Assembly: GCF_013315695.1 (NCBI RefSeq)
Contig: NZ_CP054353.1
Reading direction: 5' to 3' (one strand)
DNA: 64,000 bases
DNA from: Escherichia coli
Lineage (GTDB): Bacteria; Pseudomonadota; Gammaproteobacteria; Enterobacterales; Enterobacteriaceae
Shown: positions 15,001 to 21,000 of the stretch, piece by piece
Layout: each line of letters starts with the position of its first letter
Position numbering within the stretch: position 1 is the stretch's first letter
Program-made: the position numbers

Positions 15001-18000
15001 GTAATTAACAATGCCGCGATGACAACGCACATCCAGCGTTTGCCCGGTGACAGGACGACCTAAAAAGGCTTTGCTATTGCTGCCCTGAATCACCAGCGGC
15101 GTTTTATCGCTAATCGCCTGATTCACCTGCTCCAGCAGCGCCTGGCTGTAATCACACTCGCGTAGCATCAGAAACGCTCCAGTTCAGGAAAAGGTAAATG
15201 ACCGTGATGCACATGCATGGCACCAAATTCAGCACAGCGGTGTAGCGTGGGAATGTTTTTTCCTGGGTTCAGCAAACCATCGGGGTCAAACGCCGCCTTG
15301 ACCGCATGGAAGGTCGTGATTTCATCGCTGTTGAACTGGGCGCACATTTGATTGATTTTTTCGCGCCCGATGCCATGTTCCCCACTGATGCTGCCGCCAA
15401 CTTCAACGCAGAGTTCGAGGATCTTCCCGCCCAGTTCTTCCGCGCGGGCAAATTCACCGGGTTCGTTGGCATCGAAAAGGATTAACGGGTGCATGTTGCC
15501 GTCTCCGGCATGAAAGACGTTGGCAACGCGTAAATCATATTGCTGCGATAAACGGGCAATGCCTTCCAGTACGCCAGGCAGGGCGCGGCGCGGGATGGTG
15601 CCATCCATGCAGTAGTAATCCGGGGAGATACGTCCTACCGCCGGGAACGCATTTTTGCGACCGGCCCAGAAACGTACTCGCTCTGCTTCGTCCTGTGCCA
15701 GACGGACGTCAGTCGCACCCGCGTTCAACAAGATGTCGTTAACCTGCTCGCAGTCTTCCTGTACGTCAGACTCCACGCCGTCCAGTTCGCATAACAAAAT
15801 CGCTTCGGCATCGACGGGATAACCGGCATGAATAAAATCTTCCGCCGCGCGAATCGACAGGTTATCCATCATCTCCAGCCCGCCGGGGATAATGCCATTG
15901 GCGATGATGTCACCAACCGCAAGTCCGGCTTTTTCTACCGAGTCAAAGCTGGCTAACAGAACCCGCGCCACGGGCGGCTTCGGCAACAGCTTCACCGTTA
16001 CTTCGGTGGTCACGCCGAGCATACCTTCCGATCCGGTAAACAGCGCCAGCAGGTCAAAACCAGGCGAATCCAGCGCGTCCGATCCCAGCGTCAGCGCCTC
16101 GCCATCCAGCGTTTGCACTTCAATTTTCAGCAGGTTATGTACGGTTAGACCATATTTCAGGCAGTGAACGCCACCGGCATTTTCCGCCACATTGCCGCCA
16201 ATCGAACAGGCGATTTGTGAGGACGGATCCGGCGCGTAATAGAGATTATGCGGCGCAACGGCCTGGGAGATCGCCAGGTTACGCACGCCCGGCTGCACGC
16301 GCGCACGGCGACCAACGGGGTTAATGTCGAGGATCTCTTTAAAGCGCGCCATCACCAACAACACACCTTTTTCCAGCGGCAGCGCGCCACCAGAAAGCCC
16401 GGTGCCTGCACCACGGGTCACCACCGGTACACGCAGGCGGTGACAAACAGCCAGAATCGCTGTCACCTGTTCCATTTGCTTAGGCAGAACAACCAGTAAT
16501 GGACGCGTGCGATACGCGCTCAACCCGTCACACTCGTAAGGAATGATCTCCTCATCGGTATGCAGGATCTCCAGTCCAGGGACATGCTCACGCAGTGCCA
16601 TCAGTACCGATGTGCGGTCGACATCGGGTAAAGCGCCATCAAGACGCTCTTCGTACAAGATGCTCATGAGTAGGGTTCGCTTTGTTGTGTTGTGTGGCAG
16701 CTGATTTTTTCGCGCTGCTTCTGTGAACAGTTATTAAGCGGGCTTTTCGTTTTCGTCTATCTCTTTAGCTACCGGTCAGACCATTTTTTTTCCAGCTCTG
16801 TGACCTTGTCTTGGTTAACTTAATGTTAAATTGATGTAACATAATCACTTACGTGATGTGCGTGTTTTGCGAGTTAAGAACAGAAAAATTGGTCCTACCT
16901 GTGCACGAGGTCCGGGAATGAAAGATGAACGTCGCCCTATTTGCGAAGTGGTTGCAGAGAGTATCGAACGGTTAATTATCGACGGCGTACTGAAGGTCGG
17001 TCAGCCGCTTCCCTCGGAACGTCGACTGTGTGAAAAGCTCGGCTTCTCACGCTCCGCACTGCGTGAAGGGCTGACCGTGCTGCGCGGGCGCGGGATTATT
17101 GAAACGGCGCAGGGTCGCGATTCTCGTGTCGCACGGCTTAATCGGGTGCAGGACACCAGCCCGCTGATCCATCTGTTCAGTACGCAGCCGCGAACGCTGT
17201 ACGATCTGCTCGACGTTCGCGCATTGCTGGAGGGTGAATCGGCAAGGCTGGCGGCAACGCTGGGAACCCAGGCTGATTTTGTTGTGATAACCCGCTGTTA
17301 TGAAAAAATGCTCGCCGCCAGTGAGAACAACAAAGAGATTTCGCTGATCGAACATGCGCAGTTGGATCACGCTTTCCATCTCGCCATTTGTCAGGCTTCT
17401 CACAATCAGGTGTTGGTGTTTACGCTGCAATCATTGACCGATCTGATGTTTAATTCAGTGTTTGCCAGCGTAAATAATCTCTACCATCGACCACAGCAAA
17501 AAAAGCAGATCGATCGCCAGCATGCGCGGATCTACAACGCGGTGTTGCAGCGGCTGCCGCACGTCGCCCAGCGCGCAGCACGCGATCATGTGCGGACCGT
17601 GAAAAAGAATCTCCACGATATCGAGCTGGAAGGCCACCATTTGATTCGCTCGGCGGTGCCGCTGGAGATGAACAAGGTGGGAATGTGAGCCGAGTTTTCA
17701 CCCTCACCCTAACCCTTTCCCCGAGGGGCGAGGGATCGCCCCTGCGCTTAACAGGATCTGGTATTAAATCTGCTTTTCATACAATCGGTAACGCTTGTAC
17801 GGCTCTGCCCCAATGCGTTCCAGCATGTTATTCATGCCTGTATTGGTTTCGAGGATCCATGACATCTCCAGCGCATCGATCTTCCGGCGGGCAAACGGAT
17901 CGCGTAAGGCTTCAATCAATAACAACGCAATCACCGGGCCGATGCGGCTGAACTGATACTCGTCCCGCACGCCCATCAGCGGTACTCGCGCAGTTCGCAC

Positions 18001-21000
18001 ACCGCTGACTTTTAAACGCCACAGCAATTTTGCCCAGCCGAAGGGAAAGAGCGATCCGTTCAGATCGGCAATCGCCTCGTTGATGTTTGGCAAGCCGACA
18101 ATAAACGCGCAGGGTGCAGAATCAATCTCAGCGATGTAGATCATATCGTCCGGCACCAGATATTTAAGTTGGTCGCCCATGGTCGCGAATTCATGTTCGG
18201 TAAACGGCACAAATCCCCAGTTGTGCTGCCAGCCAGAATTGAAAATCTCACGCAGGATCTGCATCTCTTCGGCAAACCGCTGGCGATTGATGCAGCGAAT
18301 GGTCACCTTCTTACGCACCTGATCCATCAGTTTTTTTAGCGCCGGAGAGAAAGTGAGATCGGTTCGCTGCATCCACCACGCCAGTAAATCAATGCCTTTG
18401 TGATAACCCAATTGTTCAATATGCGCGGCATACCACGGTTTACCGTGCGGCATCATCGCACAGGGTGGTGTATCGAAACCTTCAATCAGTAATCCGCTTT
18501 CCTGATTGATATTCAGGCTGAAAGGCCCGCTGATCTTACTTGCACCTTGTGACTTCAACCACGCTTCCGCTGCGCCAAACAACGCGGCAAAAACCTGCGG
18601 ATCATCAATGGCGTCAATCATGCCGAAATGACCGGTATCTTTGCCGTAACGCTCGCGGTGCAAGGTATCTATTTGCGCGGTAATACGCCCAACTATCTGC
18701 CCCGCTTTTTTTGCCACCCACGCCTGCCAGATGATATGGTCCGTCCCCGGATTTTTCGCAGACAAATGCTCGTTGCGTTCAATGAATAAAGGGGGTATCC
18801 AGTTTGGATCGTCGGGATAAAGTGATGACGGAAAAGCGATAAATGCCTTAGGTGATGCTGCCAACTTACTGATTTAGTGTATGATGGTGTTTTTGAGGTG
18901 CTCCAGTGGCTTCTGTTTCTATCAGCTGTCCCTCCTGTTCAGCTACTGACGGGGTGGTGCGTAACGGCAAAAGCACCGCCGGACATCAGCGCTATCTCTG
19001 CTCTCACTGCCGTAAAACATGGCAACTGCAGTTCACTTACACCGCTTCTCAACCCGGTACGCACCAGAAAATCATTGATATGGCCATGAATGGCGTTGGA
19101 TGCCGGGCAACAGCCCGCATTATGGGCGTTGGCCTCAACACGATTTTACGTCACTTAAAAAACTCAGGCCGCAGTCGGTAACCTCGCGCATACAGCCGGG
19201 CAGTGACGTCATCGTCTGCGCGGAAATGGACGAACAGTGGGGCTATGTCGGGGCTAAATCGCGCCAGCGCTGGCTGTTTTACGCGTATGACAGGCTCCGG
19301 AAGACGGTTGTTGCGCACGTATTCGGTGAACGCACTATGGCGACGCTGGGGCGTCTTATGAGCCTGCTGTCACCCTTTGACGTGGTGATATGGATGACGG
19401 ATGGCTGGCCGCTGTATGAATCCCGCCTGAAGGGAAAGCTGCACGTAATCAGCAAGCGATATACGCAGCGAATTGAGCGGCATAACCTGAATCTGAGGCA
19501 GCACCTGGCACGGCTGGGACGGAAGTCGCTGTCGTTCTCAAAATCGGTGGAGCTGCATGACAAAGTCATCGGGCATTATCTGAACATAAAACACTATCAA
19601 TAAGTTGGAGTCATTACCTTAATTATTGACATATTACGTTGATTCACGAAAAACCCGGCAGCAAATAATGTATTGAATATTACGTGGTCCGTGCTCAGAA
19701 TATCCGTTCAACCTTATTGTGACAATGGTTAATTGTGACATTGACCTGAATTACGCTTTCATAAAAACATATTAACCAAATAAATATTTTTAATGGATAT
19801 TTAAATTAAAGGATATATTCATGCAGTCAATAACACCTCCATTAATTGCCGTTATTGGTAGCGATGGTTCAGGCAAGTCAACGGTGTGTGAACATCTCAT
19901 TACCGTTGTCGAAAAATATGGTGCAGCCGAAAGAGTTCATTTAGGAAAACAGGCTGGAAATGTCGGTCGTGCAGTGACAAAATTACCGTTGATGGGAAAA
20001 TCCTTACATAAAACAATTGAACGAAATCAGGTGAAAACAGCAAAAAAATTGCCTGGCCCTGTTCCGGCGCTGGTAATTACAGCGTTTGTCGCCCGTCGCT
20101 TACTGCGCTTTCGTCATATGCTTGCCTGTCGTCGTCGCGGGTTAATTGTTCTAACCGACCGTTATCCTCAGGACCAAATTCCTGGCGCTTACGATGGTAC
20201 AGTGTTCCCACCTAACATTGAAGGTGGTCGTTTTGTCTCATGGCTGGCAAGCCAGGAACGTAAAGCGTTTCACTGGATGGCGAGCCATAAACCTGATCTG
20301 GTCATCAAACTCAATGTTGACCTTGAAGTTGCCTGCGCGCGTAAACCCGACCATAAACGGGAATCGCTGGCGAGGAAGATTGCCATAACGCCACAGTTAA
20401 CCTTTGGTGGTGCACAACTGGTTGATATCGACGCCAATCAGCCACTGGAAAAGGTACTGGTTGATGCAGAAAAAGCGATTACGGATTTTATGACCGCGCG
20501 TGGTTATCACTAGTCAAAAATGGAAATGCCCGATCGCCAGGACCGGGCATTTTCAGGAAGGTTAAATCAACTGCAATGCTATCCAGTACAACCCACCAGA
20601 AAGAAAAATCGCCGCCGGTAAAGTAAACACCCACGCCATCAGGATGCTGGTTACCGTTTTACGCTGTAACCCACCGCCGTCCACCACCATCGTCCCTGCT
20701 ACCGCAGACGAGAGGACGTGTGTTGTGGAGACGGGCATCCCAATATAACTGGCAAGGCCGATAGACACTGCCGCCGTCATTTGTGCCGCCATGCCTTGCG
20801 CATACGTCATGCCGCGCTTACCAATCTTCTCACCGATGGTCATCGCTACACGACGCCAGCCAATCATGGTGCCGATGCCGAGCGCCAGTGCTACCGCCAT
20901 GATGATCCACACCGGTGCGTACTCAATGGTGCTTAACATATCGCTGCGCAGTTTTTTCAGCAGGTTCTGGTCTTCTTTACTGACGCCTGGCAGTTTCGCC

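Follow-up and report, generated by a model that had tools for sequence, protein, structure and literature searches.

An IS1 element as the probable anchor of a stepwise, one-sided deletion between yghO and yghT in Escherichia coli MSB1_4I

Related Systems

Adjacent deletions that grow stepwise beside a resident insertion sequence (IS), without leaving a target-site duplication, have been documented experimentally (PMC11708052). In these laboratory-selected deletions the IS stays intact at the edge of the gap, one junction is fixed while the other moves, and genomes from before and after the event can be compared. The same features are found at the locus described here, a copy of IS1 between yghO and yghT in a 64,000-nucleotide stretch (the window) of contig NZ_CP054353.1, which belongs to the finished, circular, complete-level assembly of E. 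coli MSB1_4I. However, this locus comes from a natural clinical lineage and not from a laboratory selection, and the role of transposase in its deletions is putative.

The genes lost from this site also have a described counterpart, the sphingolipid synthesis and transport region CC_1152-CC_1168 of Caulobacter crescentus (PMC11324152), whose content is similar to that of the deleted E. coli cluster. Both contain a serine palmitoyltransferase (Spt), an acyl carrier protein (ACP), an acyl-activating enzyme, and an epimerase/reductase-family protein, together with second copies of LptF and LptG, a flippase, and an acyltransferase candidate, YghO in E. coli. In contrast to the Caulobacter region, the lipid product of the E. 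coli cluster is a predicted one, and YghO matches no model in Pfam or NCBIfam. A limited literature search, which is no proof that none exists, found no description of the E. coli cluster or of the biology of yghO, yghQ, yghS, or yghT.

The IS1 Element and Its Junctions

The element between yghO and yghT is a complete, 768-bp IS1 of the IS1A type located on the plus strand (18851..19618), as a sequence-only reading of the window had placed it, and sequence, ORFs, and PGAP annotation agree on this assignment. Its left (18851-18873) and right (19596-19618) inverted repeats match the IS1 end sequence with 0 mismatches. Moreover, the insA ORF (18906-19181) and the ORF of the insB' frame (19100-19603) are joined via a -1 frameshift at the A6C motif AAAAAAC (19157-19163). 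The element thus has the length of approximately 768 bp, the imperfect terminal inverted repeats of about 23 bp, and the frameshifted gene pair of the IS1 family, and the PGAP annotation of the source genome places an IS1A transposase with programmed frameshift here. The source chromosome is rich in IS1 (at least 40 matching places), and two other copies in the window are identical in sequence to this one. These copies, 2 and 3, are flanked by an inverted 9-bp repeat; as a proof of intramolecular transposition this arrangement was rejected, since two independent insertions followed by a recombinational inversion produce the same flanks.

The 9 bp to the left of the element are AATGCCTTA (18842-18850), so that the left junction reads AATGCCTTA/GGTGATG, and the 9 bp to the right are TTAATTATT (19619-19627). 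The former would be the new junction created by the latest deletion step, and the latter the older, fixed one, which is common to strain AF3. A comparison of 5,426 complete E. coli genomes found the exact left junction only in MSB1_4I, and the exact right junction only in MSB1_4I and AF3. The mismatch of the flanks, already noted in the sequence-only reading, holds: no 9-bp (8-10 bp) target-site duplication surrounds the window IS1, and neither this mark of a simple insertion nor flanks that are contiguous in IS-free genomes are found. The missing duplication reflects later deletion and not the identity of the IS.

Extent of the Loss and Choice of the Reference

In strain TUM13770, the intact reference for the deleted interval (locus coordinates prefixed L008), the two window flanks lie 10,989 bp apart, and thus the window IS1 is not a simple insertion. 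Attribution of the site to an IS1-associated deletion, proposed from the mismatched flanks, is borne out by this distance. An ungapped comparison places window position 18850 at L008 24000 and the yghO start at L008 24056, so that yghO has lost 56 nt on one side of the element, while yghS is reduced to 29 nt on the other. The lost interval comprises eleven genes, which separate yghO and yghT in 75% of complete E. coli genomes (4,058 of 5,426 carry the cluster), namely those for a fatty acyl-AMP ligase (FAAL), a reductase/epimerase, ACP, serine palmitoyltransferase, LptG-like, LptF-like, and YtfJ-like proteins, a hypothetical protein, and full-length YghQ, YghR, and YghS.

The initial claim that yghQ, yghR, and yghS were lost is correct in that the three genes are missing from the window and present in K-12, but too narrow, as the window in fact lacks about 11 kb with eleven genes instead of three. 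The shortfall arises from the choice of the reference. Alignment to K-12 (locus coordinates prefixed L004), proposed to define the deleted interval, does recover yghQ-yghR-yghS together with an IS5 between yghO and yghT; nevertheless, K-12 understates the loss because it carries its own IS5-associated deletion of 8.4 kb at this locus, and it was rejected as a reference in favor of TUM13770. The yghO-IS5-yghQ arrangement of K-12 (IS5LO / insH9) resembles the window in having an IS at the deletion edge that clips the 5' end of yghO, at L008 24016 compared with 24000 in the window (16 bp apart), and in the absence of the FAAL-to-YtfJ part of the cluster. In contrast to the window, the element is IS5 and not IS1, 8.4 kb are gone, and a truncated yghQ, yghR, and yghS are kept. 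The K-12 deletion is independent of the window event.

Remnants of yghO and yghS and the Intact yghT

The remnant of yghO (17764..18850, minus strand) consists of native codons 20-380 and the stop codon, and shows 99-100% identity to full-length YghO from residue K20 onwards. As the sequence-only reading recognized, its frame (17764-18864, minus strand) is open through the junction, and the first possible start is a TTG at 18864-18862, inside IS1. The IS1-derived codons TTG GCA GCA TCA CC (18851..18864, minus strand) serve as the PGAP start of yghO, and RefSeq gives the name "yghO" to the resulting 366-aa IS1 fusion, whose N-terminus reads MAASP. The suspected loss of the native N-terminus and promoter region is confirmed, since residues 1-19 of the 380-aa model, equivalent to 13 residues of the conserved 374-aa form in other genera, and the entire 403-bp upstream region are deleted, and full-length YghO homologues start upstream of the junction and not at or after it. 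No Shine-Dalgarno sequence or promoter is evident at the IS1-internal start, which could in principle permit some translation of a truncated YghO. Judged from its sequence, yghO of MSB1_4I is probably an orphaned, promoterless, N-terminally truncated pseudogene, although annotated as intact, and its expression would be affected accordingly.

The product of the full-length gene would be a GNAT-like acyltransferase belonging to the module encoded by the cluster. The GNAT assignment derives only from names, from PF00583 matches in some orthologues, and from the inclusion of YghO in a GNAT screen (PMC6199490). Membership in the module is suggested by synteny in Serratia and Pantoea, where divergent yghO orthologues adjoin FAAL-epimerase-ACP-aminotransferase genes and homologues of yghT/S/R/Q.

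On the right side of the element, a 29-nt stub of the yghS 5' end (GTG AAT CAA CGT AAT ATG TCA ATA ATT AA; 19619..19647, minus strand) corresponds to L008 34990-35018 and to L004 7930-7958 in K-12. It is followed by the native divergent yghS-yghT intergenic region (19648..19820; 173 bp, about 30% GC), which is fully kept, and by an intact yghT (19821..20513, plus strand) encoding a 230-aa P-loop dTMP-kinase-like protein. Stub and intergenic region (19619-19820) are laid out as in intact strains. A promoter scan detected a promoter-like site on the minus strand (19725-19697), which may be the yghS promoter and would now read into IS1. In the same scan, neither end of IS1 showed an outward promoter, and the plus strand upstream of yghT had no site with at least 9/12 matches; the scan therefore does not point to a yghT promoter and gives no support to one derived from IS1. 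The earlier suggestion that yghT depends on read-out or promoter activity from IS1 is hence not upheld: the whole native upstream sequence is retained, and yghT would remain under its own control region.

The AF3 Allele and the Order of Events

The isolate AF3 is almost identical to the window, from which it differs by 6 SNPs, with no other indel, over 49.5 kb. AF3 carries a 100% identical IS1 and the same right junction to the base, but retains 506 bp more on the left, where its junction reads GGACTATGC/GGTGATG, and a full-length yghO. The target-site duplication is absent in MSB1_4I and AF3 alike. A relative that shares the IS and one junction while holding extra DNA on the other side is the pattern of adjacent or nested deletion, and since AF3 has the same IS1 and right junction and 506 bp more on the left, the window shows the outcome of another deletion step, which began at the left end of IS1. 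The deletion has thus arisen in at least two steps, with AF3 as an intermediate as judged from the compared genomes, and the window IS1 has, with high probability, acted as an anchor that stayed in place while the deletion grew in steps on one side of it.

According to this reading, IS1 would have entered the yghO-yghT interval in a B2-like E. coli lineage, with TTAATTATT, in the AT-rich 5'-terminal part of yghS, as the most likely site of entry. About 10.5 kb, comprising the whole cluster from the yghO/FAAL intergenic region to yghS, would then have been lost in a first IS1-associated deletion, generating the AF3 state. No genome of this lineage (5,426 complete genomes searched) combines an intact cluster with a simple insertion of IS1 at TTAATTATT, and we therefore infer the order and the side of this first step by analogy. 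In the ancestry of MSB1_4I, a further 506 bp would subsequently have been deleted, starting at the left end of IS1, a loss that covered the 46 bp still present of the FAAL gene, the 403 bp upstream of yghO, and 56 nt at the 5' end of yghO itself. As this second step would not have touched the right junction, no target-site duplication was left. This last step was most likely an intramolecular, transposase-mediated IS1 "adjacent deletion".

The main competitor concerns only how the last 506 bp were removed. A second direct IS1 could have inserted into yghO of an AF3-like ancestor, with AATGCCTTA as target, followed by RecA-dependent recombination that eliminated one IS1 together with the 506 bp. 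Such a double IS1 exists in strain EC931, with the copies 504 bp apart, and recombination there would lead to a window-like structure; moreover, the identical IS1 copies of the window provide a perfect 768-bp homology, and the 5' end of yghO is a hotspot of IS1 insertion. However, no double-IS1 genome of this lineage is present among the genomes searched, and two events are needed compared with one for adjacent deletion. As transposase-mediated adjacent deletion and IS1×IS1 recombination lead to an identical sequence, the sequence does not discriminate between them; we regard recombination as a possible but clearly less probable route.

The other explanations are far weaker. It is very improbable that MSB1_4I gained IS1 and lost 10,989 bp at once, in an event unrelated to the AF3 allele: IS movement accompanied by a large deletion but not by a target duplication is described for other insertion sequences (PMC11708052), but the right junction of AF3 is identical to the base and, among the 5,426 genomes, confined to these two strains, its IS1 is identical, and the 49.5-kb flanks are nearly so, which makes shared ancestry of IS1 and right junction far more parsimonious. 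Equally slight is the chance that an EC931-like direct pair of IS1 copies 506 bp apart has been collapsed into one during assembly. Repeats are the usual cause of collapse and the chromosome holds at least 40 identical copies of IS1, yet the assembly is finished and circular, long reads easily span a 2-kb structure, and one-IS1 nested deletions of the same type appear in several independent assemblies. Least credible of all is that IS1 simply inserted between yghO and yghT in an ancestor in which the two genes had never been separated by the cluster; nothing speaks for this beyond the adjacency itself. The truncation of both yghO and yghS at the junctions already refutes it, the absence of a target duplication speaks against it, and the cluster, present in most complete genomes, has a core-like GC content. 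Furthermore, relatives with yghO directly beside yghT in the absence of IS1, which the sequence-only reading had named as a possible contradiction, do not exist among the genomes compared: IS1 lies between the genes in all 28-31 genomes in which they are no more than 1.5 kb apart.

Recurrence of IS Deletions at the Locus

Stepwise deletion anchored by IS1 is not restricted to MSB1_4I and AF3, since independent IS1 deletions of the cluster are observed in at least 12 other lineages, several of them as nested series. In strain M9682-C1, a simple IS1 insertion in yghS is bordered by a 9-bp duplication (L008 34812-34820); F5656C1 shares the right junction and has lost about 11 kb to the left of it, and E1535, of the same series, a further 549 bp. 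Strain 1506 (24050/35072) and HCP8S3_I1 (24050/37670) form another series, CUPF09 and STEFF_1 have a common left junction, and H1827/12 and E100341 a common right junction. EC931 displays the F11 arrangement plus the second direct IS1 in yghO, which is accompanied by a target duplication. The 5' end of yghO holds at least 18 distinct IS1 positions in one orientation across a span of about 520 bp. The junction-count searches, which join pieces no more than 550 bp apart and take at most 40 pieces per record, returned at least 40 and at least 48 genomes, counts that are approximate, as AF3 is absent from one of them.

IS1 prefers AT-rich targets, and the regions bordering the cluster, with 31.8% and 30.1% GC, fit this preference. 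The yghO-yghT interval is a hotspot in which the cluster has been erased repeatedly and independently, by IS1 in these lineages and by IS5 in K-12. There is a possibility, which we consider rather doubtful, that the losses were favored by selection, e.g., because the lipid is costly or visible to the immune system, and do not merely reflect a mutational hotspot; in that case, a lipid pathway common to most wild E. coli would be missing from the reference strain K-12.

The Putative Lipid Module

The gene content of the deleted DNA, as preserved in TUM13770 and absent from the window, is that of an Spt-type lipid cluster. The TUM13770 serine palmitoyltransferase matches the equivalog model NF047599 with 598.6 bits (curated cut-off 500) and is surrounded by genes for ACP, an acyl-activating enzyme, and a reductase. 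The FAAL copy of this strain is a pseudogene with an internal stop and was left out of the family scan. The deleted cluster looks like an Spt-type (sphingolipid-like) module for lipid synthesis and export, a putative assignment in which the lipid product is predicted from the genes.

Conclusions

The window represents a clear but ordinary case of IS-driven gene loss, a new instance of a classical mechanism that leaves the knowledge of IS1 mechanisms unchanged. The annotation of MSB1_4I is corrected, as its "yghO" CDS is an IS1-fused, promoterless truncation and the strain is devoid of an eleven-gene putative envelope-lipid cluster, not merely of yghQRS. The natural series found at this locus is unusually complete, with simple insertion, a 10-11-kb deletion, further erosion into yghO, yghS, yghT, or pitB, and a double-IS1 intermediate, and it illustrates the stepwise erosion of a chromosome by IS1. 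Moreover, K-12 is misleading at this site, because the IS5 deletion in this strain conceals a conserved Spt/ACP/FAAL/LptFG-like cluster, apparently with an uncharacterised product in E. coli.

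Extent of the Loss between yghO and yghT

The E. coli MSB1_4I chromosome (NZ_LR898874.1; rectal swab, Australia) is 100% identical to positions 16800–21000 of the window over their full length, and its annotation of this region reads glcC, yghO (366 aa), an IS1A transposase with a programmed frameshift, 'dTMP kinase' (yghT), pitB, and gss. IS1 copy 1 is complete (768 bp), with termini at 18851 and 19618 showing no mismatches to IS1 ends, and contains insA (18906–19181), the A6C frameshift motif (19157–19163), and the insB' frame (up to 19603). All three IS1 copies of the window are identical to one another, copies 2 (52238–53005, + strand) and 3 (58170–58937, − strand) being delimited by end matches. 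The 9-bp flanks of copy 1 are AATGCCTTA and TTAATTATT, which bears out the lack of a target duplication noted in the sequence-only reading. Its proposal of a deletion rather than a simple insertion was also correct, since these flanks lie 10,989 bp apart in TUM13770, a strain with an intact cluster.

In the TUM13770 locus (L008), yghO and yghT are 11.1 kb apart; the left flank of the window stops at 24000, the right flank starts at 34990, and identity over the last 4 kb before the left junction is 100.0%. The cluster encodes, in order, a fatty acyl-AMP ligase (FAAL), an NAD-dependent epimerase/dehydratase-family protein, an acyl carrier protein (ACP), and a serine palmitoyltransferase (Spt); these are followed by LptG-like and LptF-like permeases, a YtfJ-family protein, and a hypothetical protein, and lastly by YghQ at its full length (449 aa, MOP-type flippase), YghR, and YghS. 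The earlier reading recognized the absence of yghQ–yghR–yghS, but took the deletion to be smaller than it is and did not see its stepwise course. At least 80% of the yghO–yghT interval is found in 4,058 of 5,426 complete E. coli genomes, and its GC content is core-like (51.5%).

K-12 does carry yghQ–yghR–yghS between these genes, as the sequence-only reading had stated, in the arrangement yghO'–IS5–'yghQ–yghR–yghS–yghT, and is itself a deletion variant at this locus. Its IS5 (insH9; 4147–5341 of the MG1655 locus) is not a simple insertion, as it stands in place of 8,384 bp (L008 24017–32400), from the FAAL gene through to the yghQ 3' part, and, therefore, both yghO and yghQ are truncated. This arrangement is common to about 350 genomes, and its clip of yghO lies only 16 bp from the left junction of the window.

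As a separate observation, the yghT–pitB–gss flank (window 19619–23618; L008 34990 onward) is just 97.25% identical to TUM13770, whereas the left 4 kb are 100% identical, which suggests from sequence comparison a mosaic produced by recombination, its boundary lying at the deleted interval or close by.

Possible Nature of the Deleted Cluster

The module comprises Spt (598.6 bits against NCBIfam NF047599, cut-off 500), ACP, the acyl-AMP ligase, the epimerase/reductase-family protein, a second LptF and LptG, a flippase, P-loop kinase-like proteins, and the acyltransferase-like YghO, whose gene is transcribed divergently. This gene content resembles that of the Caulobacter region for sphingolipid synthesis and transport (PMC11324152); searches of the literature available retrieved nothing that describes the cluster in E. 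coli. In Serratia and Pantoea, the same core genes adjoin YghO orthologues in other chromosomal contexts, which makes yghO part of the module. A small DAGK_prokar (diacylglycerol-kinase) family gene lies directly downstream of the yghO orthologue in these genera (11354–11716 in L023 and L024, 11242–11604 in L025), is not at the equivalent position in E. coli, and is possibly a further lipid-related member. The TUM13770 FAAL gene (L008 24460–26148) contains an internal stop while the rest of the cluster is intact, so the cluster may also be decaying through point mutation in some lineages.

Consequences for yghO and yghT

In line with the sequence-only reading, the yghO frame is open through to the IS1 junction and its start lies within IS1; the sole usable one, also adopted by RefSeq, is a TTG at 18864. 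The predicted loss of the native N-terminus likewise holds: YghO orthologues from Serratia, Citrobacter, Pluralibacter, Pantoea, Erwinia, Mangrovibacter, and Kosakonia are nearly all 374 aa long and begin, upstream of the junction, at a conserved MI-x-IEKV motif, native YghO starts with MECDLLMIKIEKVINKNDLKAFIAF and the window frame with MAASPKAFIAF, and 13 conserved N-terminal residues (19 of the 380-aa model) are gone together with the whole 403-bp upstream region. A promoter scan of the IS1 left end found no outward promoter and no Shine–Dalgarno sequence was seen upstream of the TTG; yghO is, by inference from sequence, probably a pseudogene. Loss of its module would leave yghO orphaned and would explain the tolerated truncation.

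IS1 is classically polar in either orientation. Next to copy 1, a 29-nt yghS 5' stub (19619–19647) is followed by the complete native 173-bp yghS–yghT intergenic region (19648–19820), arranged as in intact strains, and a scan of the IS1 right end found no hybrid promoter. With the native region whole, there is no remaining reason to invoke IS1 read-out, and the suggested dependence of yghT on IS1 becomes unnecessary.

A Probable Stepwise Deletion Anchored at IS1

Only six SNPs across 49.5 kb, and no other indel, separate the window from the isolate AF3 (NZ_OZ547117.1; blood culture, UK), which carries the same IS1 in the same orientation and with the same right junction, also with no target duplication found. 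The left junction of AF3 lies 506 bp farther out (L008 24506, 46 bp within the FAAL gene) and leaves yghO at full length. Among 5,426 genomes, this right junction occurs only in MSB1_4I and AF3, and the left junction of the window only in MSB1_4I. The window allele is thus an AF3-type allele with an additional 506-bp deletion from the left end of IS1, a direction that is clear because DNA cannot be regained.

Nested deletions beside a resident IS are documented to grow stepwise (PMC11708052). By analogy, an initial loss of about 10.5 kb beside IS1 would have preceded that of the 506 bp; the collection contains no simple-insertion ancestor of this lineage. One junction that stays fixed while the other moves, an IS that is kept, and the lack of a target duplication are the defining features of an IS-adjacent nested deletion, and stepwise deletion anchored at IS1 is highly probable overall. 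As to the route, a second direct IS1 could have inserted into yghO, with IS1×IS1 recombination then removing the intervening DNA, and EC931 is a real double-IS1 intermediate of this kind: to the F11 allele it adds another direct IS1 copy, which lies within yghO at 504 bp from the first and has a target duplication. This route is nevertheless the less likely one, and transposase-mediated adjacent deletion is moderately favoured.

Other Rearrangements in the Window

The inverted IS1 copies 2 and 3 enclose a 5.2-kb segment (ygiS 3' end, parC, plsC, ftsP, and the 3' end of the TRAP large-permease gene) that is inverted relative to TUM13770. The sequence GATTATGTC (53006–53014) and the reverse complement GACATAATC (58938–58946) correspond to one 9-bp target site (5344–5352 of the reference locus L026), and the TRAP transporter operon has lost about 1.8 kb. 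This rearrangement (52238–58946), which has the same structure in AF3, combines an IS1-mediated inversion with a deletion and involves the essential gene parC; intramolecular transposition and IS1×IS1 recombination are both compatible with it. Moreover, about 84 bp of repeat-like palindromic sequence (…CACCCTCACCCTAACCCTTTCCCCGAGGGGCGAGGGATCGCCCC…) are inserted between glcC and yghO (17674–17757); the window, AF3, F11, and TUM13770 have this insertion, K-12 and STEFF_1 lack it, and it alters the glcC 3' end (256 aa vs. 254).

Recurrence at the Locus

IS1 lies between yghO and yghT in all 28–31 genomes having both genes within 1.5 kb, in about 13 structural classes. As left/right L008 coordinates, the junctions are 24506/34990 (AF3), 24000/34990 (MSB1_4I), 24425/35022 (F11 and EC931), 24454/34806 (CUPF09), 24454/34897 (STEFF_1 group), 24466/34891 (H1827/12 group), 23986/34891 (E100341), 23832/34812 (F5656C1), 23283/34812 (E1535), 23986/35304 (STK78-E), 24050/35072 (1506), 24050/37670 (HCP8S3_I1 and others, with yghT and pitB also lost), 24138/35435 (EM20-18-50), and 24677/35630 (WEM25). 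Several pairs have exactly one junction in common and, thus, form nested series like AF3 and MSB1_4I. The O6:H16 ETEC lineage shows the whole deletion path: in M9682-C1, IS1 is simply inserted into yghS and 9 bp are duplicated (L008 34812–34820), F5656C1 has the same right junction and about 11 kb deleted, and E1535 has lost 549 bp more.

Within L008 22914–35884, IS1 insertion has hotspots at the 5' end of yghS and at that of yghO together with the DNA upstream of it, where about 520 bp hold at least 18 distinct IS1 positions (counting a single orientation); STK78-E and E100341 made independent use of one base, L008 23986. The two intergenic regions flanking the cluster have GC contents of 31.8% and 30.1%, which fits the preference of IS1 for AT-rich targets. 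The mechanism is textbook IS biology and the instance is new; recurrence across the locus, with at least 12 independent IS1-associated losses of the eleven-gene cluster, some reaching into yghT and pitB, is a modestly interesting by-product.
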